Positions 7,242 to 64,000 are shown, numbered from the stretch's first letter. The stretch: 64,000 nt of DNA from Kiritimatiellia bacterium (GCA_045617985.1 JAZLJP010000052.1:10327-74326); one strand, 5' to 3'. Numbers and translations are program-made. The notes: generated from the letters alone by a model not told the origin.

Positions 7242-7253
7242 CGCCTTTCCCCC

Positions 7254-13505: not shown

Positions 13506-13512
13506 TCGACAT

Positions 13513-13541
13513 ATTATCTCATTTCTAGGGACGGCGCGCAA
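13513..13541 (-). promoter_or_regulatory. Putative sigma70-type promoter of the T2SS operon, likely leaderless
   Basis: TTGCGC-17 bp-GATAAT (TG-extended), followed by 7 nt and then ATG; no RBS in between. Confidence 0.5.
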
Positions 13542-13566
13542 TAACGAAATTGAAAGGAACAAAAAT

Positions 13567-13601
13567 TCTTGGTGCTTGGCTCTTGGTGCCTGGTTCTTGG
13601 C
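13567..13601. repeat. Five degenerate heptamer tandem repeats (tcttggt/gcttggc)
   Basis: tcttggt gcttggc tcttggt gcctggt tcttggc, directly after the GH76 stop codon. Confidence 0.7.
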
Positions 13602-13602
13602 G

Positions 13603-14679: not shown

Positions 14680-15608
14680 TTTACGGTCCCCGTCTGCGCC
14701 GCCCAAGCCCGCGTCGCCGCACGGGCGAATCCCGTCACGGCCACCTTCCCCGAGGGATAGATCGCCACTTCCGCGAAGGCGTTCTTCTTTTGCCCTTCCA
14801 CCATCGCCGCAAGCGTGTAGAAGTTGACGCCGTGTTCGCAGGAGAAGCCGCCCACATGGTCGTGCCCCTGGAAGACGCCGAGCACCTTGCCGGCACCCCC
14901 GAGAATCTTCTGCACGGCCTCGCCGTTCTTCACGCGATGGTCTTTGCGGGCTTTCGAATCAAGCCGCTGATGGAGGAAAACGACCACCGGCTCGCACGAG
15001 GCGGCAAGCTCCCCGCGCAGCCATTCGATCTCTTGCGGCGGGATGTTGGAATCGATCCAGCTCCAGTTCAGCGGCCGGCTGCGATAGGGCTCCATCTTCG
15101 AATTGAAGTTGCCGTCAAGCACGAGGAAGCGCACGCCGCCACGAACAAACGCATAGTACGACTTCCCCGGCGGCACGCCCGTATTCACGTAGCACGGCAA
15201 GATATCCTCCTTGTCGAGGCAGTCGTTTTCATGGTTGCCCAACACGTGGTAGCGCGGCCCCTTGAAGCCGGACGCGAACACCGCCTCGATGTCGCGCGCG
15301 AATTTCAGCGTGATCTCTTTTGAAATTCTGTTCTTCTCGTCCCGCCCGAGGTCCTTGAAGTCGCCCAGCTCGATGACGAAGTCTTCCTGCCGTGCGGTAA
15401 AGACGCCGAGCGCTTCCGCAAGCTTCCCCTTCGAGAGGCGGTAGGACCGCGAATAGCTCGTTGGGATATCGGCATAATGGAGATCCGTCACCACGCCGAA
15501 GCGCACCATCGGCTTTTCATCCGCCGGCGCCTGGGCGCCAAAAAGCGGCTCCATCAGAAACGCCGCCCCACCGGCAAGAAAACCACGACGAGAAAGTTGA
15601 GCGCCCAT
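14676..15608 (-). CDS. Tat-exported calcineurin-like metallophosphoesterase
   Basis: MGAQLSRRGFL signal; TDLHYAD, ELGDFKD, LGNHE, FLHQRL, GHDH metal-binding motifs. The ORF-track start (15914) lies inside fmt and was rejected. Confidence 0.85.
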   Translation of the reverse strand: MGAQLSRRGFLAGGAAFLMEPLFGAQAPADEKPMVRFGVVTDLHYADIPTSYSRSYRLSKGKLAEALGVFTARQEDFVIELGDFKDLGRDEKNRISKEITLKFARDIEAVFASGFKGPRYHVLGNHENDCLDKEDILPCYVNTGVPPGKSYYAFVRGGVRFLVLDGNFNSKMEPYRSRPLNWSWIDSNIPPQEIEWLRGELAASCEPVVVFLHQRLDSKARKDHRVKNGEAVQKILGGAGKVLGVFQGHDHVGGFSCEHGVNFYTLAAMVEGQKKNAFAEVAIYPSGKVAVTGFARAATRAWAAQTGTVK

Positions 15609-38135: not shown

Positions 38136-38166
38136 ATGCGAAAACAGGTCAGACCTGTTTTCGCAT
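38136..38166. repeat. REP palindrome copy 1 (overlaps the RAYT stop codon)
   Basis: atgcgaaaacaggtc-a-gacctgttttcgcat, perfect 15-bp arms; central base is opposite to copies 2-4. Confidence 0.9.
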
Positions 38167-39234
38167 GCCGACGATCCACGGACCATCCGTATTGAGCTTC
38201 ACCAGTACACCATTCCTCTTCATTTTCTCAATCGCACGGTACACGGTTGACGGAAACACCTCCAAACGTTTCGCCACTTCGTCCGTTCCCAACGCCGGAT
38301 CGAGGAACAACACCGCCCACACCTTCGATTCGACATCAGGGAAACGATCAGTCCCGTATTCCCCGCCGTTCTTAAACGAAACATACGCACTTCTGACCTC
38401 TTCGAGATGCGCCGCCGCCTGCATCACCAGAACCTCGTTCGTCAACGGATCGCAAGGCGCATCACAACCGGCCGCCCGGAGACGCGCGATTCCCTCAGCC
38501 CGGCTACGTTTGATATCGGAAAGCAGATCGTCAAGCAACGCGATATGGCACGCCTCCATTTGCGAAAACAGGTCTGACCTGTTTTCGCACACTTCGCCAT
38601 AGATGAATTTCATTCCTGCGATGGCCGTTTGATCGCCACGCCGGAACGCGGCGAAACTACTCCATGCGTATCCGTCGTAGCGATCAGTCATTGCGGCACA
38701 GATGGGATTGAGGTTGATGTAACCGAGGCGTTGAGCCATCTCCTTGAACACCATCTCAACCTTCCTGTCGATGTAGACGCCCTCCCACAACGTTCCGGTA
38801 TGTTTGTGACGTTGGTTGTATTCCTCGGTAAACCACTGCTTGGCTATCTTCATGAAGTTGCCAACGTCGTACATACGCCGACGCTGCCGACGCAACCAAA
38901 CGTCAACCTCCGACTCAAGGCCATCTTTCCTTAGCCGATTGAGTTGCACGGCCATGGACGCCGCCGCCGCCGAACCTTTGAGCACACCATATCTACGCAA
39001 CACCTCCGCCTCATCCAACGCCTCCGGCTCTGGCAAATATACCAGCAAGTGGAAATGGTTGGTCATCAGGCACCATCCCAGTAATTGTATCCCCGTAAAA
39101 TCCGCCGTCCGGCGAATGATCTCGAGGAATTCGTTACGATCTTCATCGTCAAGGATGAAAACCTTGTGCGCGATTCGGCTCATCAGATGGTGAACCGTAT
39201 CGTAAGATTTGACTCGATTGTTTGATGCAGACAT
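38149..39234 (-). mobile_element. REP-associated tyrosine transposase (RAYT, Y1/HUH) with C-terminal winged HTH
   Basis: VHHLMSRI; CLMTNHFHLLV (HUH); FMKIAKQWFTEEYN...GTLWEG; GYINLNP (catalytic Tyr); YAWSSF; C-terminal DEVAKRLEVFPSTVYRAIEKMKRNG. Confidence 0.88.
38561..38589. repeat. REP palindrome copy 2, inside the RAYT ORF
   Basis: tgcgaaaacaggtc-t-gacctgttttcgca; encodes CENRSDLFSQ in frame. Confidence 0.9.
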
Positions 39235-39287
39235 TCCGTCCTCCTTTTTGCCAATCCCCCGATCGGCAATAGCCAGAACACAACGAC

Positions 39288-39296
39288 ATTATATCA
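39288..39296 (-). promoter_or_regulatory. Extended -10 promoter candidate for the RAYT
   Basis: TGaTATAAT about 55 nt upstream of the ATG, with AAGGAGG RBS. Confidence 0.5.
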
Positions 39297-39328
39297 CATT
39301 TTTCCGCTTCAAGACCCTAAAAAAATAA

Positions 39329-39359
39329 ATGCGAAAACAGGTCTGACCTGTTTTCGCAT
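39329..39359. repeat. REP palindrome copy 3
   Basis: atgcgaaaacaggtc-t-gacctgttttcgcat. Confidence 0.9.
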
Positions 39360-39415
39360 CGCAATTCAGTAACAAAGGAACGACACCTCTGCCGGGTGAC
39401 GTACAAAGATACATT

Positions 39416-39444
39416 TGCGAAAACAGGTCTGACCTGTTTTCGCA
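39416..39444. repeat. REP palindrome copy 4
   Basis: tgcgaaaacaggtc-t-gacctgttttcgca; the 36-nt context catttgcg...cgcacac is identical to copy 2. Confidence 0.9.
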
Positions 39445-40238: not shown

Positions 40239-41169
40239 TCACCCAATTCCCAATCGCCGACGCGTCGCCTCCACCTGCTCCCGCCGCTCCGCCTCCATCC
40301 GCGCCATATTCGCCCACTCTCGCATGATATTCTTGCGGAACAGAATCGTCGTATCAAGAGTAAATCCTCCCACGCAGCACATCATCCACAAGATGCCGCC
40401 GATGCCACCGGGAGAGAAAAGGGTTGCCTCTCCCATGTTTGTCACAAAAAAGACAGCCATCATCGTCGTCGTAACGAAATATTTTCGCTGCATGCAGATG
40501 CCGAAGAACGACGCGAGAAAAATCAAAAAACAAATCTCTCCCAAAATCCCCGTTTCACCCAGCACCATGACGGGCAACACGCCCTTTTCGACCGAAGCGG
40601 AAATCACGAATCCCTTTCCTCGCGTCTGTTCACGCGTATATTCCGCAACCTGAAACCCGCTTCCGATCAACGGATTCCGGCGGAATTCACGCAGACTCAT
40701 TGCCATCAACCCCATACGGCTCGAAGTCAAAGCCTCCGTCAACGACCGCTTATCGGCTGACACGTCCGACGTCTTTCGCGCCCATTCCATCATAGTACCC
40801 ACCCATCAACCGACGAAACCAGCGCCGCCATCAAAAACAGAACGATCCCCATGGAAGGCAATCGGTGCCGTCCCGTCCTGGACATTCCCCCCATCGCCAG
40901 ACAGAGGCCGATCAAAAGCGGTCCCGCGCGCAGTGAAAGCACAACCACAGAATTCGATTTCGGGAACAGTCCAGGATTGAGAATCACAAAAAACGGCATT
41001 AAGGGGAAAAAACAAGTGCCCAGCCCAATTTGTTGGTAATCGCACACCAAACGCCAGCAAGCACTAAAACCGGCGTGAAATACCCCTTCGTAAACCGGCA
41101 AAGCACAATGCCCAAGATCGTAAAGGCCAACATCTTCCCTGCTTGCTTATAAATATCAAGTTCGTTCAT
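40239..41169 (-). pseudogene. Broken paralog of the Wzy-like polymerase at 45200-46684
   Basis: N-terminal part (MNELDIYKQAGK...GPLLIG...SSVDGW) and C-terminal part (GTMMEWARK...SSRMGLM..EKGVLP..LGETG) both align to the intact paralog. Frameshift at A6 41007-41012; about 200 codons missing at ~40800. Confidence 0.8.
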
Positions 41170-41262
41170 TAGCGCGTTTCATCCTTTCGATTTACCACAT
41201 ACTAACCATCATCCAACACTACCCCGACAAGCACCACGCCAACCGGTAACACCACAGCCATA

Positions 41263-41817
41263 TCACACCCGTTTCCACTGTCCATCTTCCCAAAACATCT
41301 CGCCACTTGACTCTTTGGAAAAGAAACGATTGTCAAGATTTTCCTTCTGGATAACGCGCATAGGGGCCATGACTGCAACGGAATGCGACGGCAGATCCTT
41401 GTACACGCAACAATTCGCCCCGATACGACAATGATCACCCACCTTAACTCCACCTATTATTTTAGCACCCGCACCAATATAAACACAGTCTCCAATTTCC
41501 GGCGCCAATCCCGCAGATCCCCCGCTGTCTTTTAGAGTATCCGAACCAATTGTCACTTGCTGAAAAATGACAACATCTTTTCCGATTTTTGCTCCACGTG
41601 AAATGAAGACGCCATTGCGTCCATGCGGGAAACAAGGCTGATATGGCATTTCTACCTCCAAGGGGATGCTAGCACCCGACCTGGCCGTAAAATGGAGATA
41701 CGCCCACCGTACTACCCCGCCCCCACTCTGAAGCGCCAACTGTCGCAATTTCCACCAATTGCGGCAACGTAACAACACAAACGGATAACAACAATAACAA
41801 ACAATCTGCCGAATCAT
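41263..41817 (-). CDS. Hexapeptide-repeat (serine acetyltransferase-like) acyltransferase
   Basis: FPHGRNGVFIS..AKIG..VVIFQQVTIG; PEIGDCVYIGAGAKIIGGVKVGD...IGANCCV. Confidence 0.85.
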   Translation of the reverse strand: MIRQIVCYCCYPFVLLRCRNWWKLRQLALQSGGGVVRWAYLHFTARSGASIPLEVEMPYQPCFPHGRNGVFISRGAKIGKDVVIFQQVTIGSDTLKDSGGSAGLAPEIGDCVYIGAGAKIIGGVKVGDHCRIGANCCVYKDLPSHSVAVMAPMRVIQKENLDNRFFSKESSGEMFWEDGQWKRV

Positions 41818-42917
41818 TGGAACACCGCTCTAGCCTGTTCAGCCAATCCTCCATTGACTATTTGAGAAGGCGCAATCTCCCAATTGTCATTACCTTCTAC
41901 AATCATGGGGCCATTAGGAGTGAAAGCCATGTCCCAACCAATTGATTTCACTCGTGGTAAACATTTATGCGCCTTGAGCGCCAAAGCCAAAGCAACCTCA
42001 TAATTAGGAACTTTCAGACCCTCAAACCGAATCATCGTCTCTGGATGCTTGTCAACTTTCGTCCCACCATATTTCTTATCCTTAAACCAGCCCCAAGAAC
42101 CAATCTCTCCCTTACTCGACAAAGAGAACAGAAGTCCCCCAACAGCCCAATTGTCAACCGAATTACCATTGGCACCAATACGCATGAACTGAGTGAAGAG
42201 TTCTGGTCTGCCAACCCGATCATTCCAAACCGTAATGAATCGCGCCGTATTCAGCGACCGAGGATAGACTACGGCAAGTGATTCATGGTTGCAAATCGTT
42301 TCTTGCACGATAAAATCCCCACTCCGCGAAAACGTATTCGTAAAATCAAAAGGACGACCATCACACTCTATCGTGTTTCCATTTTTCATCAGCTTGTATA
42401 CACTCCTTCCACAAGCTTCATCCGTTGCCTTCAAAAAAAGAGGGAAACTGAAATTCAACAACGCATCCGTCCATAAGTCTAACGTACATTCTCTCTCATC
42501 AACGAAACAACGCCCACCTCGAACGTAAGCAACGACCTTTGGTGTTGGAATACCGAACTTGGACATCACCGCCCAAAAGAGCAGTTTGTCGCGAAGGATT
42601 ACGGACTGGTTGATTTCGCCACTGTAATTCAAGGGAATGATCTTCTTCCAGAATTCCGGCTCAAGCATGTATTCCTTCTGATTCTTGCAGCCGACAAGAT
42701 CAAACCCGTATGGATTGTAGAACTTACCATAATCCCCTGTCTTGATTGCCGACCAGACCAACTCCAGGTAACGGCGAACCGCCGACTTGCGCTTCCGCTC
42801 GGGATAGTACGACGGATCCTTTACCCGCAACGGTGCCAAATAGAACATCACCGCCAGCACACGCAATGGATACCACCGATAAACAATATCGGCCAATTTG
42901 AGCATTCGCGGACTCAT
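41814..42917 (-). CDS. Sugar-transfer-associated ATP-grasp protein
   Basis: LRDKLLF; FLKATDEACGRSV; IVQETICNH; SLNTARFIT; DNWAVGG; IGWDMA.T..GP.IVEGN. Confidence 0.85.
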   Translation of the reverse strand: MSPRMLKLADIVYRWYPLRVLAVMFYLAPLRVKDPSYYPERKRKSAVRRYLELVWSAIKTGDYGKFYNPYGFDLVGCKNQKEYMLEPEFWKKIIPLNYSGEINQSVILRDKLLFWAVMSKFGIPTPKVVAYVRGGRCFVDERECTLDLWTDALLNFSFPLFLKATDEACGRSVYKLMKNGNTIECDGRPFDFTNTFSRSGDFIVQETICNHESLAVVYPRSLNTARFITVWNDRVGRPELFTQFMRIGANGNSVDNWAVGGLLFSLSSKGEIGSWGWFKDKKYGGTKVDKHPETMIRFEGLKVPNYEVALALALKAHKCLPRVKSIGWDMAFTPNGPMIVEGNDNWEIAPSQIVNGGLAEQARAVFQ

Positions 42918-42933
42918 TGGACCATCCTCTTCT

Positions 42934-43866
42934 TTAAACCTTCACATTCCAGAAACAGGCCAAACCTGGCCGAAACACAAATTCAGCAAGCGCCTTACTC
43001 AAGAATTTACTCGCGGTACGATAAATCAACGACGGCGAATTATTCACCTCGTAAAAGAAACGGCCATCCTCTTCATACATCGGATTCCCGATACTCGTGT
43101 ACCGCGTTCCCTCAATCGTATTCCCGGCATCGGCAGCTGCATCGATGAAGAAACATCCCTTCTTCGTCCGTGCGATGTCTTCTTTTGTGACTAAGTGAGC
43201 ATTGGGAATGTCGATCTCGATTCCGTTCACAATCACATCGAATGAACCGATCTCCTGCTTGAACTCATTCATCGTCTTACGGTAAAACATACGAATGTTA
43301 TCCGTAAACTTGCTAAGGAAATGGAAAACCCCTTGGGCGGTATTCCCATTTCCAAGAACGGCGATCCGCATTGTCGGATCAGGATAAGCACCATAATTAA
43401 GAAACGCATGCATCGTCGAAGAGAACCCTGCGTAGAAACTATTTTTATAAAGGAAATTCTTCGGAATAAAATCAAGCACAACAGATCGGCCCTCATAATA
43501 CATCTTGGGATAGGCATTATCTAAGTCAATGATTTTCAGTTTCTTCGGCAACGCCTGTTCGGTCATGAAATTCATGCCCGATCCCGTTGGGTGTGTCCAA
43601 CCGACAATCATCTGTCCTTCACGAATAGAGGCATAGTCCTGCGGTTGAAGTAATTTAAGCGCAAAAATCGTATCACAGGTTCTAAAAACATTCTCACGGG
43701 ACTCAATCAGACATCCCTTCTCCAGATAGGCGGCATCGCTGATCCCCATCGCCTTACCAAACCCCGTCTCAACAATCAAATCATCCGGGAATTCATCAAT
43801 ATCCTCAGGGAACAGGGCAATCCGCTTCTCATTCGGATAACTAGGGATAACAAGTCCAACCTTCAT
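42934..43866 (-). CDS. N5-(carboxyethyl)ornithine synthase-like opine dehydrogenase (AlaDH/PNT family)
   Basis: NEKRIALFPED; ETGFGKAMGISD..Y; GWTHP; VLGNGNTAQG; IDAAADAG; VNNSPSL. Confidence 0.82.
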   Translation of the reverse strand: MKVGLVIPSYPNEKRIALFPEDIDEFPDDLIVETGFGKAMGISDAAYLEKGCLIESRENVFRTCDTIFALKLLQPQDYASIREGQMIVGWTHPTGSGMNFMTEQALPKKLKIIDLDNAYPKMYYEGRSVVLDFIPKNFLYKNSFYAGFSSTMHAFLNYGAYPDPTMRIAVLGNGNTAQGVFHFLSKFTDNIRMFYRKTMNEFKQEIGSFDVIVNGIEIDIPNAHLVTKEDIARTKKGCFFIDAAADAGNTIEGTRYTSIGNPMYEEDGRFFYEVNNSPSLIYRTASKFLSKALAEFVFRPGLACFWNVKV

Positions 43867-43870
43867 AGCC

Positions 43871-45190
43871 TCATCCTTTCACATTCAAATTCTGGACAAT
43901 CTTCCGAAGTTTCCCGCGTCCACTTTTTTCCATCTGCGAATCGTCATCAACCAAGCGGAACTTCAGTTTGAAATTCGGTAGATTCTTCTCGTATGATTGC
44001 TTCATCAACGCCAAAAGCCGATTCCCTTCGTGCTGCCATTCATGGCGAATGAGCAACAGCACCTCTATCTCGGCATACTTATTTTGCACGACTTGAAAGA
44101 AAAGCATTTTACGATAGACTTCATCAGGGGCCCCAATGGCCGTGAGCGAATACTTCACATCGGGAGACTCGTAGACGAAATCCTTCGCCGAACGCCCCTG
44201 CAAGTCAACAATAACGATGCGTTCTTCCTCGCGTACAATCCGTCCGTAATCGCCCGTTCTATAATTCACGAGCGGCATGGCTGGATTCACAAACGTCGTC
44301 CCCACGATTTCCCCAACTCCGTTTTCACTTTGATCGACGACACGTGGATAGCCATACGACGTGAAATTGACAAAACGTCCATCGGCATTTTCGTCATACG
44401 CGAGAACGACCTTTTCGGTCAGACCATACCACGACATGACACGCGCATGGAAGAAATCGGACAATTCCTTTTTCAGTTCCACCGTCGCGCCTTCACTCGC
44501 CAACATGATCTCCCGGACATCGAATCGTTCACCCAAATTCTCCAAACGTTCCTTGAACATCTTGATCAGAGTTGGATAACCATGAAGACATGAAATATGC
44601 AAACGCCGTATCCGAGCCAAGAATTCAGGGAATGTCCTGTTATTAACCTGAAAGGCATCCACGCTCAACTCATTATAGATTGGATCAAATCGAACGAACT
44701 CTCCTGGCTTAAACTTGTAGCCCCGAAACGTAAGCTTTAGATCCTTATGGCGATCATACCCGCCCAGTTTCCAAATACGCAGCATGTGCTTCCATTCAAC
44801 ACCATACGCCGAATTACTCAACTTGACATGTGTCGGCAGTTTCGTCATCCCCGTTGTCGTCCAATACGAATTGAAATCCGTAGCCCCATTGCTCACGAAT
44901 TTGTCCGGCGCGGCCGATATGTCCTGCGATCCGACAATCGGCAAGTCTGCCACAACCTTCTCGGCATCTTCTACGGTAATATGGTTCGGGATATTCTCAC
45001 GCCCCCAGACGGTATGGTCACGCGCATAGTCAAGCGCCGTCTTCAGATTTGATCCAAGACAACAAAGATCCGTTCGCGGCACACATGTGCGAAATCCCCC
45101 ACCAAACAACACCCCATCAGGAACATACTTGAGCGGTGCCGTAAGCTGCGGAGGTAAACTGCGATATAACTTTTTCAGTTGAAGAAGCAT
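43871..45190 (-). CDS. CapK / phenylacetate-CoA-ligase-like adenylating enzyme
   Basis: TTTGMT (divergent TSGST loop); LHGYPT; YGLTE; GEIVGTTFVNPAMPLVNYRTGD; GRGKLRKIV. Confidence 0.78.
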   Translation of the reverse strand: MLLQLKKLYRSLPPQLTAPLKYVPDGVLFGGGFRTCVPRTDLCCLGSNLKTALDYARDHTVWGRENIPNHITVEDAEKVVADLPIVGSQDISAAPDKFVSNGATDFNSYWTTTGMTKLPTHVKLSNSAYGVEWKHMLRIWKLGGYDRHKDLKLTFRGYKFKPGEFVRFDPIYNELSVDAFQVNNRTFPEFLARIRRLHISCLHGYPTLIKMFKERLENLGERFDVREIMLASEGATVELKKELSDFFHARVMSWYGLTEKVVLAYDENADGRFVNFTSYGYPRVVDQSENGVGEIVGTTFVNPAMPLVNYRTGDYGRIVREEERIVIVDLQGRSAKDFVYESPDVKYSLTAIGAPDEVYRKMLFFQVVQNKYAEIEVLLLIRHEWQHEGNRLLALMKQSYEKNLPNFKLKFRLVDDDSQMEKSGRGKLRKIVQNLNVKG

Positions 45191-45199
45191 AGTACTACC

Positions 45200-46684
45200 C
45201 TATCGTCTAAATTCCACCGGTCCTGCAAGTGCCATCATCTTTTCTAGGTTCCGATGATAAAGAAGAATTGTGTCTATAGTAAACCCGCCAACAACGCAAA
45301 TCACCCACATAATACCACCGATCCCGCCCGGAGAGAAGAACGTCGACTCGCCCATATTCGTTGTGATGAATACCGTAAAGAGAGTCACAGTTGTTATAAA
45401 TTGCTTCCTATTGCAAATACCATAGAAACCGACCAAGAAAACGGCAAAAAGAGTAAAGCCAAGCAACCCTGTTTCTCCAAGGACCATCGTTGGAAGAACG
45501 CCCTTCTCAATCGACGCGGAAATAATGAGACCTTTTCGCCGACCAAACCTGCGTAAAGTGTTCTCATCCACCTGGAACCCCATCCCCAACAACGGATTTT
45601 TCTTAAAATCACGTATAGACGCCTCCATCAAACCCTGGCGGCTAGACGTAAAAGCCTCGGTAAGGGTTCGCGTGTCCGAAGAGACGTCATCTTTCTTTCG
45701 CAACCACCGCGTCATCGAACCATCCTTCAACTCGGCAGCGATCATAATCAACCCCATAAGGGCCAAGCCGACCGTCAGCCCCGTGCGGACATGACGCTTC
45801 ATCTTCTGCGGCATCTTAACTTTTCGAGACGCATAACAATAAACCATTGCAAACATTACTGAGAACGACAAGAAACCACATCTTGAACGCGTGAGATAAA
45901 GCATCGGCAACGACAAAAACACAAGCAACAAATGGAACTTATTAAACTTGCGCTGAATGAACAACATATCACAGACAATCCAACCAACACAACAGGTCAT
46001 AATCGGAGCGAGCGCCTGACTTTGATTGAGCACGCCACAAAACAGAGCAGATGTTCCCTCGGCCGTTTGTGCTAGATCAGCCGCAGCCCCCAGATCCCCG
46101 CTTCGCATCGCGAGCTGCATGGCGCTAAGCTGCGAATAGGCCGGAAAGGGGTATAATAAAACGCTTCCCAACACGACCCAACAGGCAATTGCCATAAAAA
46201 AAGCCCTCAGCAGATAGACATCTTTCGGCCGATGGTGCATATTCTTCGTCCCGAGCCACAAACCCAACAGGAATACTGAGAAGTTGACAAGTTTCAAATA
46301 ACTGACCTTCGGCAGCCAACCACCACCTGACGAAATACAGGCCGCCAAGAGGAAAGGAATCATCAAGCCAAAGGGCACACAATGCCGCCCGACCCGCTGC
46401 GAACTCGTCACCGCCAAGATGCCACCAATCAACAAAGGACCAAACCGAGCCGCATAAGCGATTGACGAGGTGGTGGGGACAAGCAACGGGTTGATGACAA
46501 TCGTAAGCGGCATGAACACATAACAACAAAGAGCGATTCCCGTCTTCCCCGTCAAGGCGCAAACGGAACCGATTACCGCCACCGCCACCGCAGCATAACC
46601 ACCAGTCAATCTGCAAAGAACCAGAAGGCCGACGATAACGGCCAAACATTTTCCAATCAACTTATAATAAACCCGATCATTCAT
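45200..46684 (-). CDS. Wzy/O-antigen-ligase-like polymerase (multi-TM)
   Basis: About 12 hydrophobic segments; GVLNQSQ; LTRSRCG; SSRQGLM...NPLLGMGF; LGETGLLG; start set at MNDRV after the upstream stop. Confidence 0.78.
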   Translation of the reverse strand: MNDRVYYKLIGKCLAVIVGLLVLCRLTGGYAAVAVAVIGSVCALTGKTGIALCCYVFMPLTIVINPLLVPTTSSIAYAARFGPLLIGGILAVTSSQRVGRHCVPFGLMIPFLLAACISSGGGWLPKVSYLKLVNFSVFLLGLWLGTKNMHHRPKDVYLLRAFFMAIACWVVLGSVLLYPFPAYSQLSAMQLAMRSGDLGAAADLAQTAEGTSALFCGVLNQSQALAPIMTCCVGWIVCDMLFIQRKFNKFHLLLVFLSLPMLYLTRSRCGFLSFSVMFAMVYCYASRKVKMPQKMKRHVRTGLTVGLALMGLIMIAAELKDGSMTRWLRKKDDVSSDTRTLTEAFTSSRQGLMEASIRDFKKNPLLGMGFQVDENTLRRFGRRKGLIISASIEKGVLPTMVLGETGLLGFTLFAVFLVGFYGICNRKQFITTVTLFTVFITTNMGESTFFSPGGIGGIMWVICVVGGFTIDTILLYHRNLEKMMALAGPVEFRR

Positions 46685-46688
46685 AAGA

Positions 46689-47789
46689 TCATACTTTGGC
46701 ATAATTTGGGGCGACAGGCATCCTGTCTGCCCCCCCTTCAAACAAAGATTCATAGACCGCGTCCATCCGCAGGGCAACAGCTTCCCACGAATACTTCGCA
46801 CGCACCAACTCACGGCCGCGCCCCCCCATATCCGCTCGCTCCGCGTCCGAAAGCAAAATCAATGCCCGCAAAGCCTTCACTAGACTTTCAGCATCGTTTT
46901 CCACCCACCAACCGCATCGAGCCGCTTCCACTTCCTGCCAAGGCGTGCCCTTACTCGTAATTACCGGAAGGCCCCAGGCAAGGGCATCCACCACCACTCC
47001 GCCAAAGTTCTCGGTAAAACTCGGCAAGATCAGCGCATCGGCATTCCGATATTCCTCATCCAGCGTCTCATCGTATTTCGGCCCCGGGAATTCAACAGAC
47101 GTCTCCAATGCCAAACGCTGCGTAAGAGATCTCAAGGTTCCAGAGTAATTCGCCACGTCCGTACCGACAATCCGCAGTTTCCATTTCTCGTTCTGCACAA
47201 CCTGCCAAGCTCGAATCAGATTCTCAAGCCCCTTCACTGGATTGATGCGACCTACGAAGAGGAGCGTCTTCTTCTCATGTCGCCGTAACGGAACCACCTC
47301 TGGGAATGCTGTTCCCAACGGAACATTTTCAATTCGCTTCTTAAAGCCATACGCCTCAACCCATTCACGTTCTCTCTCACTCGTCACATGTAAAACAGCC
47401 GCTGTACGCAAGTCATGCTTCTGCCAAAGCGTCCATGCCAAGCTTTTCTTCCACCACTTGTACCGTATCGCCCAAGGCGCCAACATGCCATGCAGAGACC
47501 AAATGACCGGTTTATTCCATCCCCTACATTTCTTGATAATCCCATGCATAAAGGGGGGCCAAATACCGTGCAAATGAATCAAATCCCAATCCGACAACCG
47601 AATCATCGCATCTTCCATACGTACCCGCGGAACTTCAACAGCCGATGGAGCAATATCAAAACGATTCCAATCCTTGATGGCAATTGTATTATCTCCCCCG
47701 CTCCGCTGAAGTGCATCAGAAATCCCTACAACAAAAGTTGTCACACCAGAGGCTTTTGGCAGATAGGGGACTATGTGTAAGACTTTCAT
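46689..47789 (-). CDS. Glycosyltransferase family 4
   Basis: MKVLHIVP; HLHGIW; LFVGRINPVKGL; LPSFTENFGGVVVDALAWGLPVI; ATGA overlap at the start. Confidence 0.9.
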   Translation of the reverse strand: MKVLHIVPYLPKASGVTTFVVGISDALQRSGGDNTIAIKDWNRFDIAPSAVEVPRVRMEDAMIRLSDWDLIHLHGIWPPFMHGIIKKCRGWNKPVIWSLHGMLAPWAIRYKWWKKSLAWTLWQKHDLRTAAVLHVTSEREREWVEAYGFKKRIENVPLGTAFPEVVPLRRHEKKTLLFVGRINPVKGLENLIRAWQVVQNEKWKLRIVGTDVANYSGTLRSLTQRLALETSVEFPGPKYDETLDEEYRNADALILPSFTENFGGVVVDALAWGLPVITSKGTPWQEVEAARCGWWVENDAESLVKALRALILLSDAERADMGGRGRELVRAKYSWEAVALRMDAVYESLFEGGADRMPVAPNYAKV

Positions 47790-52974: not shown

Positions 52975-53963
52975 CGATGGAACCCTCTCGCTTTCAGTTG
53001 GTAAGGCCAGAGGCACAGTATCGTCGCCAGCAACCGCAATGGGCACAATCGCAGAAACCTGAAACGGCCCTGCTGAAATAGGGACATACGACGGCAAGTC
53101 AGGACACGCGGCAAGGCCGCTTTCCATACCTGCCAAACCTCGTCTCGATCCTCCTTGGGCAATTGGACATACTCATGCATGAAAGTCTCCGACATCCCAT
53201 TCGCATACCCACGAACCAATGACCTGCCAAGCGTGCGCGGCGAAGTTTCCAGCAACTCCAAACACTGCGTTACATATTCAATTCTGTCCAACACTCGACG
53301 CTTTCCGATCGGCGACAAAATGGCCGAACCAGTACGTCGACGATAACCATAAAATGTCGAATCAAGAATCACCTGTTTCTTCGCCCGCAAACAACACGAC
53401 AAAAGAAACAGGATGTCTTCCCCAAAGGCCAACGGCTGAAACCGAAGTGATCCGACAACATCCCTCCGATACACCTTTCCCGCGAAACAAAACGACACAT
53501 CCGCCGAGTCAACAAACTCTAAAAGGTTAGAAATGCGCTGCTCGCAGCCCTCGAACTTCTCCGGCCAAGGATAAGGCCCCTTCTCTGGGAAATACTCAGT
53601 ATTAAACGCAACAACATCAACTGTCGCGTCTTGTCCAGCGACACGCGCACATTCCGCGAGCGTCCAAGGCGCCCACACATCATCCCCATCGAGAAAGGCA
53701 ATCCATTGTCCCTGAGCCACCTCCAAACCGGCATTCCGCGCTGCGGCGACACCGACATTGCGTTGGTGGATAATCTTAAAACGGTTGTCCCGCCGCGCCG
53801 CCTCGTCTAAAATCAGACCACTGCCGTCCGATGACCCATCATCGACACAAATACACTCCAAATCCACACAAGTCTGTTCCCGAACCGAATCAAGGCACTC
53901 GCGCAGATAAGGGGCGACATTGTAGACTGGAATGATGATTGAGAAACAGGGGGGGGCACTCAT
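52971..53963 (-). CDS. Glycosyltransferase family 2
   Basis: FSIIIPVYNVAPYLRECLDSV; VDDGSSDGS; GVAAARNAG; FLDGDD; GEDILF. Confidence 0.9.
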   Translation of the reverse strand: MSAPPCFSIIIPVYNVAPYLRECLDSVREQTCVDLECICVDDGSSDGSGLILDEAARRDNRFKIIHQRNVGVAAARNAGLEVAQGQWIAFLDGDDVWAPWTLAECARVAGQDATVDVVAFNTEYFPEKGPYPWPEKFEGCEQRISNLLEFVDSADVSFCFAGKVYRRDVVGSLRFQPLAFGEDILFLLSCCLRAKKQVILDSTFYGYRRRTGSAILSPIGKRRVLDRIEYVTQCLELLETSPRTLGRSLVRGYANGMSETFMHEYVQLPKEDRDEVWQVWKAALPRVLTCRRMSLFQQGRFRFLRLCPLRLLATILCLWPYQLKARGFHR

Positions 53964-55105
53964 GGCAAATGTGAAGACAACCAAGCTAGGGATTGATTAC
54001 GTTCTTGGGCAATGACGAACTTCAACTTTTGAAGATCACAATCCTCCGACAACACACGGATCAATTCAGCCGACGACACCTCCATCGGAAAATGCCGGTT
54101 CTGAAGCCCCAATCGTTCAAGCAACTCAACCTGCCGCGCGTTTTGATTACCATAACTCGCCGCATGTTGCTCGACAAAAACCAGTTTCTTACCAAAAATC
54201 GCTGCGAAAACAAGTCCATGAAATGAATTGGTGATAATATAGTCTGCATCACGGTAACAGGCGAGAAAATCAACAGGGCCTGGACTGAGGCGAATCGAGC
54301 GGGGCAGGAAATATTGCGCCCCTTGAACACCAATCACCTTCAATTCACACCCAAGCGAAACTGCCGTTTTTTCTAGATTATCCAAGTTCAGCTGCTGACG
54401 GCTCTCCACATTGACAAGATAAGCCAGCAACGTTTTACGCTTCAACACTTTCCGCGATGACGGCAAAGACAACCACTCACGGACGGAGAGCAGGAAGACC
54501 GGATCGGCCACGCGCACCACCTCTACCTGCGGTACAAGCCTGCGGCAAACCTCAACCCCAGCCTCTTCACGCACCCCCAGGGCACGAAACACGCGCCCCG
54601 CCTCTTTCAAGCAATGTTCCCATTGTTCATTACCAACCCGATCGCACCAACCCGTACTAACAGCATAGGACAAGCGAAGCGGAACGGAATCCATACCCAA
54701 CAGAAAATCCTCGGGGCGCATGGATGACCAGATCTGATCGCCACCCACCACGCAAGCCACCGGCTGCGACAATTCTTGATTCTCAAACACCCGTCCGATA
54801 AGGCGATGGTAATCGACGAGGAACCGACAATAACCGACAAGATAGTCCAGCCCCAGGAATCGGGCACCCGAACGGCGAACATGCAACCAAGACAAGAGCT
54901 TCATCCGTAAGGTCCGCACCGGCATCAGCCAATCACCAAGGCCTCTTAACCGCGAATCGTCTTCAAGACGATACGGTACATACCCCCGCTCTGCCAATAC
55001 TTTCCGCAAGGCATAATGTTGGAAGAACGACCCGTAGTTTGACAGGAGAAAAGCCCTACCAATCGTACGAATGCCAATCCGGTTGCTCAAACCACTCTTC
55101 ACCAT
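53960..55105 (-). CDS. Polysaccharide pyruvyl transferase family protein
   Basis: NYGSFFQHYAL; VGGDQIW; GVREEAG; DPVFLL; ITNSFHGLVFAAIFGK. Confidence 0.88.
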   Translation of the reverse strand: MVKSGLSNRIGIRTIGRAFLLSNYGSFFQHYALRKVLAERGYVPYRLEDDSRLRGLGDWLMPVRTLRMKLLSWLHVRRSGARFLGLDYLVGYCRFLVDYHRLIGRVFENQELSQPVACVVGGDQIWSSMRPEDFLLGMDSVPLRLSYAVSTGWCDRVGNEQWEHCLKEAGRVFRALGVREEAGVEVCRRLVPQVEVVRVADPVFLLSVREWLSLPSSRKVLKRKTLLAYLVNVESRQQLNLDNLEKTAVSLGCELKVIGVQGAQYFLPRSIRLSPGPVDFLACYRDADYIITNSFHGLVFAAIFGKKLVFVEQHAASYGNQNARQVELLERLGLQNRHFPMEVSSAELIRVLSEDCDLQKLKFVIAQERNQSLAWLSSHLP

Positions 55106-56271
55106 AACCCAACTTTCCGCAAAAATCTCCCTACCGTTGTCCGCGCATACCGAAGCCCATATTTCGGGAAACGACGATACCAAGGGCCATCCATCACGAA
55201 CGCAACCGCCTGCGTCACCGTACCCCGCTCAAGCACCTTTTGAAAGGCTACAACTTTCTGCCGGTCCAGGGGCGTCGCCGCAACGAGGGACTTGTTGTAG
55301 GCCGTCACGTTCTCCCAGGTTGTCGGAGTGAGCACGAGGTCACAGTCCTCCACAGCCCGCCGTCCGCGTTCCGTAAAACAGACCACTGCCGAACACCCCT
55401 GCGTTCGATCTAACTCAGGATGGAAATGCTCAACGCCCCAAAAATCACCAATCGCCACATCCGCTCCCGATCGACCGCTCTTGAACGGACATGCATGACA
55501 ACTCGGTCGAAGGCAAAGCCCCTTCAGAAAAGCTCGCGAATATCCCTCTGAATAGGCTGGGCGAACCAATGACTTCCCATTATCGAAGGTCACGGCAAAT
55601 GCACTCCCCGATGACAGCAATCCCTTCGTCCTAAACCCGACTCGCGTAATCTTCCCACGATATTGGCACTCTAATTCATCACAATACCGTTGCCACAATC
55701 CAGGCGAACCGATACCATGACAGACGACTTCAACTGCCAAGAGGTTCTCATACTCCCGCCCAAGGAATCGCTTCAAACCTGCGATTTGGCAGGGCGTACC
55801 GGTAAAGAGGACCTCAAGACCATTACAAAGCGCCTGCTTCACTTGAACGTAGGATCGTCCTGCTGCACTTTGCACATATTTCGAACCACGCATAGACGCG
55901 CAAGCGTCTTCCACCTCACCGACCAGATGTCGAACAGACCGATAATTCTCCGTCCAAACGCAACCAAAGGCAACACCTTCTGCCGCCAGTACCCGTCGAT
56001 ACAGTGCCGCGAAAACGCCACCCGATGTACTTTTTGCCAAATCATTCCGATCCCTAAGAACAGCCGCGAAGCATTCCTTGGAGGGTTGCTCCGCCCTCGG
56101 CTTCAACACAGGGCATCTGTTTTCACATAGCGAACACCCCCGGCACTTCGTCCGATTGACTTGGGGGTAATCGAATCCAGCATCCGTCAGAACGAGTGAA
56201 ATGGCGGCAACAGGGCAAATTGCTGCACAAGTGCCACAACCCGTACAAAGTTCTAATCCCGGCAAGCTCAT
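55099..56271 (-). CDS. 4Fe-4S dicluster + F420-hydrogenase beta-subunit (FrhB)-like protein
   Basis: CTGCGTCAAICP; CRGCSLCENRCP; STSGG; RGSKYVQS; GTPCQI; VCHGIGSP; LRPSCHAC; DVAIGDFWG. Confidence 0.88.
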   Translation of the reverse strand: MSLPGLELCTGCGTCAAICPVAAISLVLTDAGFDYPQVNRTKCRGCSLCENRCPVLKPRAEQPSKECFAAVLRDRNDLAKSTSGGVFAALYRRVLAAEGVAFGCVWTENYRSVRHLVGEVEDACASMRGSKYVQSAAGRSYVQVKQALCNGLEVLFTGTPCQIAGLKRFLGREYENLLAVEVVCHGIGSPGLWQRYCDELECQYRGKITRVGFRTKGLLSSGSAFAVTFDNGKSLVRPAYSEGYSRAFLKGLCLRPSCHACPFKSGRSGADVAIGDFWGVEHFHPELDRTQGCSAVVCFTERGRRAVEDCDLVLTPTTWENVTAYNKSLVAATPLDRQKVVAFQKVLERGTVTQAVAFVMDGPWYRRFPKYGLRYARTTVGRFLRKVGLW

Positions 56272-59865: not shown

Positions 59866-61283
59866 TTACGGAAGCTCAACAACAACTTTAAAAAAATGGT
59901 CATCTGCCTCAGGAGGGGTATGCCAGTCTTGTGTCCATAGACTTTTTGTTCCATATACTGAATATTTTCGCATTTCCCCCAAGTCGGGTGCCCATGTAAT
60001 ACGAGGCAAAGTTCCATTCAAATCAATGTATGTACGGAACGCGCCATTCAAACTGTTTGGCCGAGGATCGGTACCCGCAACATAATCGAACCACAAAGGC
60101 GTCGATTTTCCAAATGGACTCGGAATCATTCGCAACAATTGCCTTAACTCCTGCCCAGACAAATCCAATACCGCAGGATAGACCGGCGCAAGGACCTCCT
60201 TTATCCATGTCCCAGGAATACTCGGCACGATCCCGCTTATGACATCCTCATCACCAGACATACTCAAATCATTCCAATAAATCGTTTTAGTCAACAAATA
60301 ATTACGCGCCAAGATAGAACCGTCAATTCCCAGACCTACGACTGAAATACAGTCATACTCCTTGTCCCGAGTGACTGCCATCAACTTTTCAGGCTTGATG
60401 GAGACCTCTACGGATCCATCCTTCACGTCTACACGATCCACCTTTAATCCATCAACATAAACATTCACAGTTTTAACATCCATAGATCCGACCGCCACAT
60501 GCAATCTAATCCAGGCACCATCCATTATACCAACGGACTCAATCGTACCATTCAATCCATTCAAAACCGAGAAACCGATTAATGAAGACACGGCATAGGG
60601 AGATGCACTATTTGCCGTTTTCAAGCTTTTCATCAAAGTTCCAACATTTTCAAACTGTCCATCAAGCCATATCAATCTCTCCAAGAGATATTGTTTCACC
60701 CCCGCTACATCTCCCTCCTTGCCACTAAACCCGATACGATATTTCCATCGTTTCTCATTTGCTACTCCAGCTTCAAACGAATACTTTGCGAATGTATCTA
60801 TGCACCCGTAAGAGTAATATCCTTAAAGATAGCATCACCATTATCCGACGAGTCCAAAGATTCCCTCATGATCGCCCCCCCGCCCAAAGGACCATCACCA
60901 GCTACATACACATGCCTCGTGTTCAACGTTGAAGTCTTCGCATCTCCGCACAATCGTAACGCTGCGTTGTTTGAAACAACCAAATCGCCTATTCCCCCAA
61001 AGGCTGTCGCATTAGCCCCCATAAAGGTACCGTCCCTCACTTCAATATTTCCAATATAGTCCATGTTTGTACTTGTCACCCAAACGTCCCCCCCTCTTGT
61101 AACCACGGTATGGCCAATCAATGGCAATACATAAACAACTTGTTCATCTGAATGAGCCGTCAATGTTAAAATATCATCATCCGCAAATCCAAAACCGATC
61201 TGCATCCAGATCAAAACCAGCAACAAACACTTGTAGTGTAGAGAAGCCCCCCCTCGTGCACGAACGTTTGACAGACAGAACAC
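59866..61283 (-). pseudogene. Frameshifted secreted/surface protein (autotransporter-type repeat N-terminal part; DYVAGTDP...FFKVVVELP C-terminal domain)
   Basis: ORF 60798-61283 (signal-like segment, YIGNIEVRDG, DITLTG) stops at TAG 60798-60800. A second frame open from ~60825 continues into ORF 59866-60699. One frameshift or junction joins them. Start uncertain. Confidence 0.6.
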
Positions 61284-62055: not shown

Positions 62056-62817
62056 TCAGATCCGTTCCTCTACGCCCCTGAAGTGGACGTTGAGCTCGTG
62101 GAGTGGCGCGAGGAGCGTTCCTAGCGGTGTACCTGCGGTCATTTTCGCGAAGGCGTTCACGTCCTTCGGGAAGCATTTTCCGCCGTAGCCGAACTTGCCG
62201 TCGGGGCCGGGGACGTAGGTGTGGGTGTCGTTGATGTAGCCCGAGAGAAGGCAGCCGTTGTGGACGTTCGCCCAGCGGGCCCCCATCTTTTCGCAGTATT
62301 CCTTCACGGCATTGAAGTACGTTACCTTATAGGCGCCGAAGACGTTGTGAACGTATTTCGTGATTTCCGCCTCAAGGGGCGTCATCACCGCGAACTTCTT
62401 ACCGATGAAAATCTTCGTGAGGAGATCCACCGCGCCCGTGAAGACCATCGTCTGCTTCTTGAAGTCGGCAATGTGCGTACGCTCGGTGAGGAACTCGGGC
62501 ATGTAGCAGACCTGGTGGCCCGTCTCGCGCGAGAGCATGTCAGAAGTACCCGGGAGGATCGTCGTTCGTACGAAAACGGGTACGTTCGGCAACTTCCGAA
62601 TGAGTTCTTTCATGAGCGTCAGATTCTGCGTACCATCGTCCTCCGTGGGTACATGGATCTGGAGAAACGCGATGTCGATCTGCGAAAGATCGTCGTTATA
62701 CCCCTTCGGCGGATCGGAAACGAAGATCTCGCAATCCCGATTGTTCTCTTCAAGCCACGTCTTGAGCGCTCCGCCCACGAAACCGCAGCCGATGATACCG
62801 ACTTTGATCTTGCTCAT
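62056..62817 (-). CDS. Short UDP-glucose 6-dehydrogenase-like protein (lacks the C-terminal UDP-binding domain)
   Basis: GIIGCGFVG; IHVPT; RTTILPGT; MPEFLTE; AEITKY..N...A.KVTYFN; PGPDG..GYGGKCFPKD. Confidence 0.8.
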   Translation of the reverse strand: MSKIKVGIIGCGFVGGALKTWLEENNRDCEIFVSDPPKGYNDDLSQIDIAFLQIHVPTEDDGTQNLTLMKELIRKLPNVPVFVRTTILPGTSDMLSRETGHQVCYMPEFLTERTHIADFKKQTMVFTGAVDLLTKIFIGKKFAVMTPLEAEITKYVHNVFGAYKVTYFNAVKEYCEKMGARWANVHNGCLLSGYINDTHTYVPGPDGKFGYGGKCFPKDVNAFAKMTAGTPLGTLLAPLHELNVHFRGVEERI

Positions 62818-63331: not shown

Positions 63332-63580
63332 TCATTTAGTCTTCGAGCGTAAAACCGAAACGATCGACTGGAGGGATTTATCCTTCATGAGCGCGGCGAA
63401 AGCGAGATAGCAGACTGCCCCTACGGGCACCCCGACAAAGAGTTTCAGCCACGGCCCCGAAAGCGGACAAATGACCATCGCCACGACAAGGCTCATCACG
63501 CTGCCATTGAGGAAGATGGGGAACAGATCGTTCAACTGAGCCACGAAACCGTAGTCTAAAAACTTCTTCGTATAATGGCA
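63332..63580 (-). pseudogene. C-terminal fragment of a second Wzx flippase
   Basis: Frame reads CHYTKKFLDYGFVAQLNDLFPIFL...GAVCYL...LRSKTK*, like the WzxC-type C-terminus; no N-terminus or start present. Confidence 0.65.
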
Positions 63581-64000
63581 AACGCTGAACGCCCTGCCAC
63601 CACAAGCCCGTCATCCACGAAAGCAAATGCGAAGGATGGCGCAACTCCAGAAGATGGAAACGACGATATAAGCCCAGCCCCAGACGAACCCTGAAGATCT
63701 TCCGACGAAGAGCTTCAATCCCGAGGCAGAACCGCTTCCGTTCATCCGGATCGTCGGGCAGGCAGTCGAGCGGAAAGATATCGATGAACAACCCCTGATT
63801 GAAATCGAAGAGCGCGCGCCCATTCACCATCTCGTCCTTCAAAATGCCCGTCGTCGACGAATTCCGCAGCTGGGCGTGTCCACGCGCCGAACCGGGATCG
63901 GTCGCGTTCGTCTGCCAGAAATAGGGCGCGCGAAACGCCGTTGGCGCAATCTTGCAAAGCCGCTCATAATCGTCACGCGGCATCAAGAGGTCGATGTCGT
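63581..64000 (-). pseudogene. LicD-family phosphotransferase; start outside the window, C-terminus apparently deleted
   Basis: DIDLLMPRDDYERL; YFWQT; LFIDIFPLD LicD motifs. The frame runs out of frame into the Wzx fragment; no YD.YL...YGDY-type C-terminal motif. Junction position approximate. Confidence 0.7.

Follow-up and report, generated by a model that had tools for sequence, protein, structure and literature searches.

The enzyme N5-(carboxyethyl)ornithine synthase (CEOS; gene ceo, EC 1.5.1.24) has been without a clear purpose since the 1980s. According to Thompson and Donkersloot, the lactococcal enzyme reportedly uses pyruvate, ornithine or lysine, and NADPH. Its product is a free intracellular amino acid with no known role. 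We analyzed a four-gene cassette that contains a ceo homolog and lies in a surface polysaccharide locus of an uncultured gut bacterium of the Kiritimatiellia (GCA_045617985.1). The cassette occupies positions 41,263 to 45,190 of the 64,000-nucleotide stretch JAZLJP010000052.1:10327-74326; "the window" refers below to that whole stretch. We found that ceo homologs in polysaccharide loci are usually close to a gene for a carboxylate-amine ligase.

The known amine substrates of Cj1438 of Campylobacter jejuni HS:2 are ethanolamine or serinol phosphates, and not an opine. Its C-terminal, TupA-like ATP-grasp domain (Cj1438C) amidates glucuronic acid (GlcA) of the capsule at the C6 carboxylate (PMC11800379). 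Among O-antigens, that of Providencia rustigianii O14 contains N-epsilon-(1-carboxyethyl)-L-lysine amide-linked to galacturonic acid (GalA), that of P. alcalifaciens O35 contains alanopine on 4-amino-4-deoxyquinovose (Qui4N), and that of Proteus mirabilis O27 contains plain lysine amides on uronic acid (PMC10609480). The original prediction for this DNA, made from the sequence, had pointed to carboxyethyl-lysine amides on uronic acids in some enterobacterial O-antigens, and the P. rustigianii O14 structure confirms that these are real (PMC10609480).

In the open-access literature that we searched, we found no gene assignment for the O-antigen groups that contain opines and no report of ceo in polysaccharide loci. 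This agrees with the original statement that no experimental description of such a pathway was known for this lineage; the search was limited and is not proof of absence. Decoration of surface glycans with amino-acid amides is already known. The partnership of ceo with a ligase, which recurs in the polysaccharide loci of many phyla, is, as far as we found, undescribed.

The four-gene cassette

The genes of the cassette, in the order of transcription, are:

43871-45190, minus strand: CapK/PaaK-like adenylate-forming (ANL) ligase, 439 amino acids (aa)
42934-43866, minus strand: ceo homolog, a reductive aminase of the N5-(carboxyethyl)ornithine synthase family, 310 aa
41814-42917, minus strand: ATPgrasp_ST (sugar-transfer-associated ATP-grasp) carboxylate-amine ligase, 367 aa
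41263-41817, minus strand: left-handed beta-helix (hexapeptide) acetyltransferase, 184 aa

All four open reading frames (ORFs) are intact. Nine nucleotides (nt) separate the wzy stop from the CapK start, with 4 nt between CapK and ceo and 16 nt between ceo and the ATP-grasp gene; the ATP-grasp and acetyltransferase genes overlap by 4 nt. The prediction of four packed genes directly after wzy was right in its ORFs and coordinates, and also in its gene identifications. The ratio of nonsynonymous to synonymous change (dN/dS) was 0.05-0.07 for the CapK, ATP-grasp, and acetyltransferase genes (0.05 for the acetyltransferase), indicating that these three genes have been maintained by purifying selection. 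For ceo, synonymous sites were saturated (pN = 0.14).

The ceo homolog is closer to CEOS than to alanine dehydrogenase

The ceo protein matches AlaDh_PNT_N (PF05222, 55.3 bits) and AlaDh_PNT_C (PF01262, 56.8 bits), both over the cut-off. Its full-length identity to proteins that bear the name N5-(carboxyethyl)ornithine synthase, one of them from Riemerella anatipestifer, is 52-57%. Homologs from Lactococcus, Enterococcus, Vagococcus, and Clostridium are 44-50% identical to it (47-50% for the Lactococcus homologs, loci L046 and L073). The match to solved alanine dehydrogenases (AlaDH) had E = 2e-14, was in two fragments, and was ~18-20% identical. At 310 aa the protein has the length of the short CEOS form, versus ~370 aa for alanine dehydrogenases. 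These comparisons indicate that the protein is a member of the CEOS family and make its identity as an alanine dehydrogenase unlikely. The predicted reaction is that of pyruvate with the side-chain amine of ornithine or lysine and NADPH, giving an opine.

The catalytic residues are those expected of the fold. The AlphaFold model (mean predicted local distance difference test, pLDDT, 91.1) has the AlaDH fold (TMq 0.78); comparison of the sequence and fold with the PDB revealed no solved CEOS structure. The counterparts of AlaDH R15, K74, H95, and D270 are kept as R15, K71, H92, and D246. They align with the AlaDH motifs ENR, VKEP, YLH, and DQGG, which function in pyruvate binding and catalysis, and are invariant in the homolog alignment (R15, K71, and H92 are at least 95% conserved among ~67 homologs). 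The alignment also has an invariant R196-K197-T198 after the dinucleotide-binding strand, which could be compatible with binding of the 2'-phosphate of NADPH.

Ligase genes accompany ceo in polysaccharide loci

From species-representative genomes we took 80 genomic loci that contain ceo relatives, added contigs of closer relatives from metagenomes, and read the neighborhoods by iterative hidden Markov model searches on naive ORF calls. A locus was taken to have polysaccharide context if it contained at least two polysaccharide markers. Thirty-two ceo loci had such context, and in 27 of these 32 a carboxylate-amine ligase gene was no more than 3 kb from ceo and usually no more than 100 bp from it. 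Most of the five without a ligase were on contigs that end beside ceo. In contrast, ~45 Firmicute ceo loci (Lactobacillales and Clostridia, including Lactococcus) had no polysaccharide marker, no ligase, and unrelated neighbors. The original prediction had proposed analyzing the neighborhoods of ceo homologs in Wzy loci, and the result favors its core idea. One ceo-ligase locus is in R. anatipestifer (CP121210.1, ~810-831 kb), where the ligase gene that adjoins ceo is that of a 329-aa ATP-grasp.

The ligases that accompany ceo belong to four non-homologous or distantly related families: a 329-aa divergent ATP-grasp, ATPgrasp_ST, ATPgrasp_TupA (next to ceo in L086, L087, and L006), and the CapK-like ANL enzymes. 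Most ceo loci, those of Riemerella and Bacteroidales, have an ATP-grasp and no CapK. The 329-aa partner has no Pfam match and was found in 21 loci (e.g., L001:10936-11925), in most of them immediately following ceo. The only PDB entries that its profile matches are ATP-grasps (PurD best at 9.4e-8, plus RimK, LysX, and Ddl), it aligns to ATPgrasp_ST with 90% probability in hhalign, and 52 positions are invariant in the 21-locus alignment. By these profile comparisons it is a divergent ATP-grasp, of what appears to be an undescribed family. Non-homologous enzymes with the same chemistry have replaced one another as the partner of ceo, a strong argument that ceo and its ligase would act in one pathway.

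We found nothing in the ceo proteins themselves that distinguishes the two kinds of loci. The glycan-locus and the stand-alone Firmicute groups share 51 positions at which conservation is 95% or more in each, and no alignment column was specific to either group. This suggests that glycan-locus ceo proteins catalyze the same chemistry as the Firmicute enzymes, on free ornithine or lysine.

We also considered, and rejected, the notion that glycan-locus ceo is a neofunctionalised clade: there are no group-specific residues, and separation in a rough neighbor-joining tree was partial. Most ligase-linked ceo proteins fell apart from the Lactobacillales clade; the split was not clean.

In L026, an arginase-family gene (L026:10929-11810) lies directly after ceo, a hint that ornithine is the substrate. 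The same arrangement is found in L048, L057, L065, and L074, and in several Bacilli contigs an alanine-racemase-like gene follows ceo and the arginase. With arginase beside it, ceo may have its own source of ornithine or be part of a small operon for opines.

Other neighborhoods varied in different ways. Three ATPgrasp_ST paralogs are beside ceo in L007 (in tandem) and in L009 and L030 (interspersed with other genes), an arrangement that hints at a short peptide side chain built in successive steps. The pair of ceo and the 329-aa ATP-grasp is also in Methanogenium archaea (L035 and L040) and in a Patescibacteria contig (L028). The Methanogenium pair adjoins an ATP-grasp_3 protein, TFIIE-alpha, and an HD protein; no polysaccharide markers were detected nearby. 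In L084, right after the polysaccharide genes, positions 7030-14699 contain a defence-like run: an AAA_15/AAA_21 ATPase, HATPase_c_3, HNH, and an N6_Mtase/Eco57I-type methylase.

The two ligases and the acetyltransferase of the cassette

The ATP-grasp protein matches ATPgrasp_ST (PF14397) at 132.8 bits, versus a cut-off of 31.4. A sequence-only search of the PDB gave no match. The fold of its model (pLDDT 90.7) matches ArgX/LysX, Ddl, and RimK, with a Foldseek probability of 1.00 to ArgX, Ddl, and RimK. K163, Q205, E341, and N343 are invariant and D329 nearly so among 37 homologs; judging from the family, these five are probably the residues that bind ATP and magnesium. The three nearest homologs whose context we examined (85%, 51%, and 50% identity) all neighbor an AlaDh_PNT gene. 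This protein is most likely the ligase that would couple an opine or amino acid to the glycan.

The CapK-like protein is harder to place. It scores 26.5 bits to AMP-binding (PF00501; cut-off 29.9), to which the precomputed Pfam list assigns it. The NCBIfam matches, to the DVU_1553 family (3.2e-16) and PaaK ligases, are all far under their cut-offs, and the sole match in a sequence search of the PDB was a weak one to phenylacetate-CoA ligase 9s3l. Its homologs are named phenylacetate-CoA ligase or have a CapK_C domain. The ANL motifs YGLTE, YRTGD, GR (G332-R333), and GK (G426-K427) are present and invariant. The A3 P-loop is a variant, TTGMTKLP (versus TSGSTGxP), with lysine in place of the second glycine. 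The invariant residues are T112, G114, T116, P119, D314, G332, R333, G426, and K427. The protein is 83% identical to its orthologs in both L088 and L090, and in L084, L085, and L088 the CapK-like enzyme is the only ligase adjoining ceo.

Genes for PGA_cap, a protein with a CapA-like metallophosphatase fold, recur beside CapK-like ligases and ceo in polysaccharide loci (L084, L085, L090, L094, L096, L008, L009, L013, and L023). There is none in the window.

The acetyltransferase matches Hexapep (PF00132) at 46.7 bits, versus a cut-off of 27. The nearest NCBIfam models, EpsC, CysE, NeuD, and WcaB, are all under their cut-offs, and there was no equivalog-level match. The protein is 92% identical to that of L090, 58% to that of L097, and 44% to a copy beside CapK in Vibrio breoganii (L096). 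It is predicted to O- or N-acetylate a sugar or the appended amino acid.

Relatives of the cassette and recombination in the locus

Two copies of wzy flank the cassette, one of them decayed:

45200-46813, minus strand: wzy, repeat-unit polymerase, functional copy (Wzy_C, E = 4.9e-9)
40239-41172, minus strand: decayed second wzy (pseudogene), detected by tblastn in three different frames

The functional Wzy is 84% identical to that of L088 from residue 44 on (dN/dS 0.14); the alignment with this ortholog does not extend to earlier residues, which puts the probable true start near 46684.

A colinear relative of the whole cassette is in L090, a metagenome scaffold with the order PGA_cap, CapK, ceo, ATPgrasp_ST, acetyltransferase, and then wzy. 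L090 is colinear with window positions 45157-41254 at 76.6% nucleotide identity, and the CapK, ceo, ATP-grasp, and acetyltransferase proteins are 83, 78, 85, and 92% identical, respectively. The colinear quartet, together with the dN/dS values of 0.05-0.07, argues that the arrangement is not due to chance. Synteny between L088 and the window (80-84% nucleotide identity) begins at the glycosyltransferases and takes in Wzy, CapK, and ceo. After ceo, L088 has fucosyltransferase genes in place of the ATP-grasp and acetyltransferase genes. L097 has the same four families in another order: Wzy, CapK_C, ATPgrasp_ST (51% identity), Hexapep (58%), and AlaDh_PNT.

What remains of the decayed wzy corresponds to Wzy residues 43-102, 90-167, and 365-537, each in a different frame; residues ~168-364 are deleted. 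It is 48-49% identical to the C-terminus of the L090 Wzy. This copy is a relic of the wzy that trails the cassette in L090-like donor loci and marks a recombination scar. From this relic and the comparisons with L090, L088, and L097, the arrangement in the window is a recombination mosaic.

Setting of the locus

The GC content of this genome segment is 60-69%; at ~38 kb it drops to 45-53% and stays there until 62 kb or beyond. The island of low GC is a Wzx/Wzy polysaccharide locus on the minus strand, with the four-gene cassette inside it. In the order of transcription the locus consists of a LicD fragment, a short Ugd-like gene, RmlC, and two ORFs without a family match; a GalE-like epimerase, a GT2 glycosyltransferase, and Wzx; an FrhB-like Fe-S protein, a pyruvyl transferase, a GT2, an Acyl_transf_3 protein, and a GT25; and then four GT4/GT1 genes, Wzy, and the four cassette genes.

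The high-GC flank codes for GH20, GH78, GH76, GH39-like, and GH141-like enzymes, and also for an M60 peptidase, a secretin, MlaE, and a PATR-repeat protein. These genes resemble those of PVC-like degraders of glycans and mucin, and this content points to a Gram-negative glycan degrader. We found no rRNA, tRNA, or Rfam match in the window. In a search of public sequencing runs, relatives of the core flank were found in several gut metagenomes and one metatranscriptome. No run was found with the cassette; the coverage stops at 38-41 kb, with none over the four genes. Thus, the polysaccharide locus is strain-specific.

A perfect 27-nt palindrome, GCGAAAACAGGTCWGACCTGTTTTCGC, is present four times, at 38138, 38562, 39331, and 39417; no copies are expected by chance. 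The copies (38138-39443) are around and inside an ORF at 38149-39234 (minus strand) that has the N-terminus of an IS200/Y1 transposase and a C-terminal helix-turn-helix. Judged from its parts, this is probably an element of the REP/RAYT type, and its position coincides exactly with the GC boundary of the island. Parts of the element occur in other metagenomes that lack the cassette.

At 53960-56271 (minus strand), the polysaccharide pyruvyl transferase gene overlaps that for the FrhB/FdhB-like protein, which has two 4Fe-4S clusters. One possible product of this pair is a pyruvyl ketal; another is a reduced substituent of the lactyl type. Either would be a second pyruvate-derived decoration from the locus. 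The two ORFs without a family match (277 and 161 aa) are at 59866-61283 (minus strand), between the GalE-like and RmlC genes, and one of them resembles a fragment of a repeat-rich secreted protein. These ORFs and the LicD fragment, at 63378-63986, suggest more decay or mosaicism in the locus.

The original prediction had UDP-GlcA supplied by the Ugd-like gene:

62056-62817, minus strand: short Ugd-like dehydrogenase, 253 aa (UDPG_MGDP_dh central domain, 2e-15)

We did not find support for this. The protein keeps GxGxxG and the GGKCFPKD cysteine motif, its N-terminal domain is weak, and it has no C-terminal UDP-binding domain (PF03720). It is in a 1094-member cluster (90% identity) of ~251-aa proteins, and copies 85-86% identical to it occur across unrelated contigs (L006:2362-3117 and L094:7350-8105). 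The L094 copy (86%) is directly after a CapK homolog. The Ugd-like gene is at most a possible member of the pathway of the cassette. The window contains no full-length Ugd, aminotransferase, PGA_cap, or initiating transferase that would identify the acceptor sugar. Elsewhere, 12 ceo loci have a full-length Ugd within 10 kb, and two more have the short form only.

Proposed pathway and alternatives

On balance, and with modest confidence, we favor the notion that the four genes are a side-chain module of the Wzx/Wzy locus, by which an opine would be made and amide-linked to the repeat unit. The sequence comparisons establish what the four genes are, that they are intact, that there is purifying selection, that the quartet is conserved and mobile, and that ceo and ligase genes are linked across phyla; we infer the substrates, the order of the steps, the roles of the ligases, and the acceptor sugar. 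In a reductive, NADPH-dependent condensation, the ceo enzyme would join pyruvate to the side-chain amine of L-ornithine or L-lysine to give the opine N5-(1-carboxyethyl)ornithine or N6-(1-carboxyethyl)lysine. An ATP-dependent ligase, likeliest ATPgrasp_ST, would then link the opine to the repeat unit. It may act like the Campylobacter TupA-like ATP-grasp, with phosphorylation of a sugar carboxylate and attack by the alpha-amine; that the TupA-like enzyme amidates the C6 carboxylate of GlcA supports decoration with an opine amide. The CapK-like adenylating enzyme and the hexapeptide acetyltransferase might add or finish a second acyl or aminoacyl feature, and CapK is a possible coupling enzyme where it is the sole ligase beside ceo (L084, L085, and L088). 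Of the decoration model as first proposed, the coupling of an opine enzyme to ATP-dependent ligases is well supported by comparative genomics; the roles given to CapK and to the Ugd-like gene are not.

Several points weigh against this pathway. To our knowledge, only one member of the CEOS family, that of Lactococcus lactis, has been characterized. Our sample of ceo loci was drawn with two peptide patterns and naive ORF calling, and the counts are approximate. Without a full-length UDP-glucose dehydrogenase in the window there is no clear source of uronic acid, and the Ugd-like gene lacks its C-terminal domain. The L097 dehydrogenase is only 32% identical to the ceo protein and is closer to AlaDH; the amine or keto-acid partner of dehydrogenases of this type may be variable. 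CapK homologs (39-53% identity) are also found in polysaccharide loci that lack ceo (L094, L095, and L096). Their neighbors there include PGA_cap, a hexapeptide transferase (V. breoganii), a short Ugd-like gene, an ADH/GFO fusion, and a heparinase-II/III-like gene. CapK is therefore not dedicated to opines, and the cassette may be two independent sub-modules. The earlier claim that CapK activates the opine is not supported as it stands, since CapK occurs in L094-L096 without ceo and ATP-grasps are the commoner partner of ceo across loci; we dropped a dedicated opine-activating role for CapK as a firm claim.

The steps might occur in the reverse order: plain lysine or ornithine would be amide-linked first, and ceo would then carboxyethylate the bound side-chain amine. 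We consider this unlikely, though worth serious weight. O-antigens with amides of plain lysine (P. mirabilis O27) or carboxyethyl-lysine (P. rustigianii O14) would fit a tailoring enzyme (PMC10609480), and CapK homologs are present in loci without ceo, with L088 resembling such a locus to which ceo has been added. However, the active site has no clade-specific changes relative to the Firmicute enzymes, which presumably act on free amino acids, and the arginase gene beside ceo in L026 suggests a supply of free ornithine. It is also conceivable, but rather improbable in our judgment, that the cassette specifies two unrelated decorations, with ceo and ATPgrasp_ST making an opine amide and CapK and the hexapeptide acyltransferase adding some other acyl group by way of an acyl-AMP or acyl-CoA. 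Consistent with this, CapK, Hexapep, and PGA_cap are together without ceo in V. breoganii (L096), as are CapK, PGA_cap, and the short Ugd-like gene in L094, and most ceo loci (Riemerella and Bacteroidales) have an ATP-grasp and no CapK. Two separate decorations would not account for CapK as the sole ligase beside ceo in L084, L085, and L088, or for the recurrence of all four families in L090 and, reshuffled, in L097.

We think there is only a small chance that the dehydrogenase is not an opine synthase here, and that it makes an ordinary amino acid (alanine from pyruvate and ammonia) or carboxyethylates an amino sugar, with ligation to follow. Its fold and catalytic residues are common to alanine dehydrogenase, the corresponding enzyme of the L097 quartet is nearer AlaDH, and both alanine amides and alanopine occur in glycans (PMC10609480). 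Against this are the 45-57% full-length identity to the CEOS family versus ~20% to AlaDH, and the length of 310 versus ~370 aa. In addition, alanine is abundant and needs no dedicated gene in the locus, and the visible locus has no aminotransferase to make a free-amino sugar. Least probable of all, and scarcely to be expected, is that the genes make a free small molecule (an opine peptide or metabolite) that is not attached to a glycan, or are non-functional passengers. The Methanogenium loci L035 and L040, with ceo and an ATP-grasp and no polysaccharide markers detected nearby, would fit a free product. But the genes of the window, like those of 32 other loci, are surrounded by wzy, wzx, and glycosyltransferase genes, in one transcriptional direction; there is strong purifying selection, and the genes have no exporter or regulator of their own. 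A metallophore pathway of the staphylopine type was rejected on gene context and because such pathways use a different family of opine dehydrogenase.

Beyond the window, decoration of a glycan with an opine may be a general function of the pair. A tentative extension, for which we would put the chances at somewhat less than even, is that ceo and a carboxylate-amine ligase form a widespread, unrecognized, and horizontally spread module for the addition of carboxyethyl-ornithine or carboxyethyl-lysine to surface glycans. Its range, stated equally tentatively, would include Bacteroidota (among them the duck pathogen R. anatipestifer), PVC-like gut bacteria, Cloacimonadota, some Bacillota, and Patescibacteria. 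If true, this would be the first clear physiological role for the CEOS family and would provide the missing genetics for antigens of the "alaninolysine" type. Non-sugar substituents set the serotype, the recognition by phage and antibodies, and the charge of bacterial surface glycans. The ceo-ligase pair offers a testable hypothesis both for the purpose of CEOS and for the genes behind opine substituents, and R. anatipestifer strains with the locus are a cultivable organism for the test. The pair could also serve as a genomic marker for zwitterionic or poly-anionic amino-acid side chains in the capsules of gut Bacteroidales and other uncultured bacteria.

Comparison with known systems

The CapK-like protein is similar to the PaaK/CapK (COG1541-type) enzymes of capsule loci in its ANL motifs, its similarity to PaaK and DVU_1553, its homologs with CapK_C, and its location in a polysaccharide locus. 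It differs in its variant P-loop and in a Pfam score just under the gathering threshold. We know of no biochemical function for any PaaK/CapK member from a capsule locus, and the open-access literature that we searched contained nothing relevant to the function of CapK.

Cj1438 is also an ATP-grasp in a capsule locus, and the TupA-like type is one of those that accompany ceo. For the ligation of an amino acid to the carboxylate of a sugar, this family supplied the sole experimental precedent that we found. The Campylobacter domain is TupA-like and fused to a GT2, whereas the enzyme in the window is of the ATPgrasp_ST family and stands alone. The O-antigens of Providencia O14 and O35 match the predicted outcome, an opine amide-linked to a sugar of the repeat unit. 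They are from a different phylum and are known only as chemical structures.

The lactococcal CEOS is of the same family as the ceo protein described here, with ~310 aa, both the N- and C-terminal AlaDh_PNT domains, and the same catalytic residues. In contrast to that protein, the lactococcal and other Firmicute ceo genes stand alone, with no polysaccharide genes and no ligase. The ceo gene in the window is in a Wzy locus, together with two ligases.

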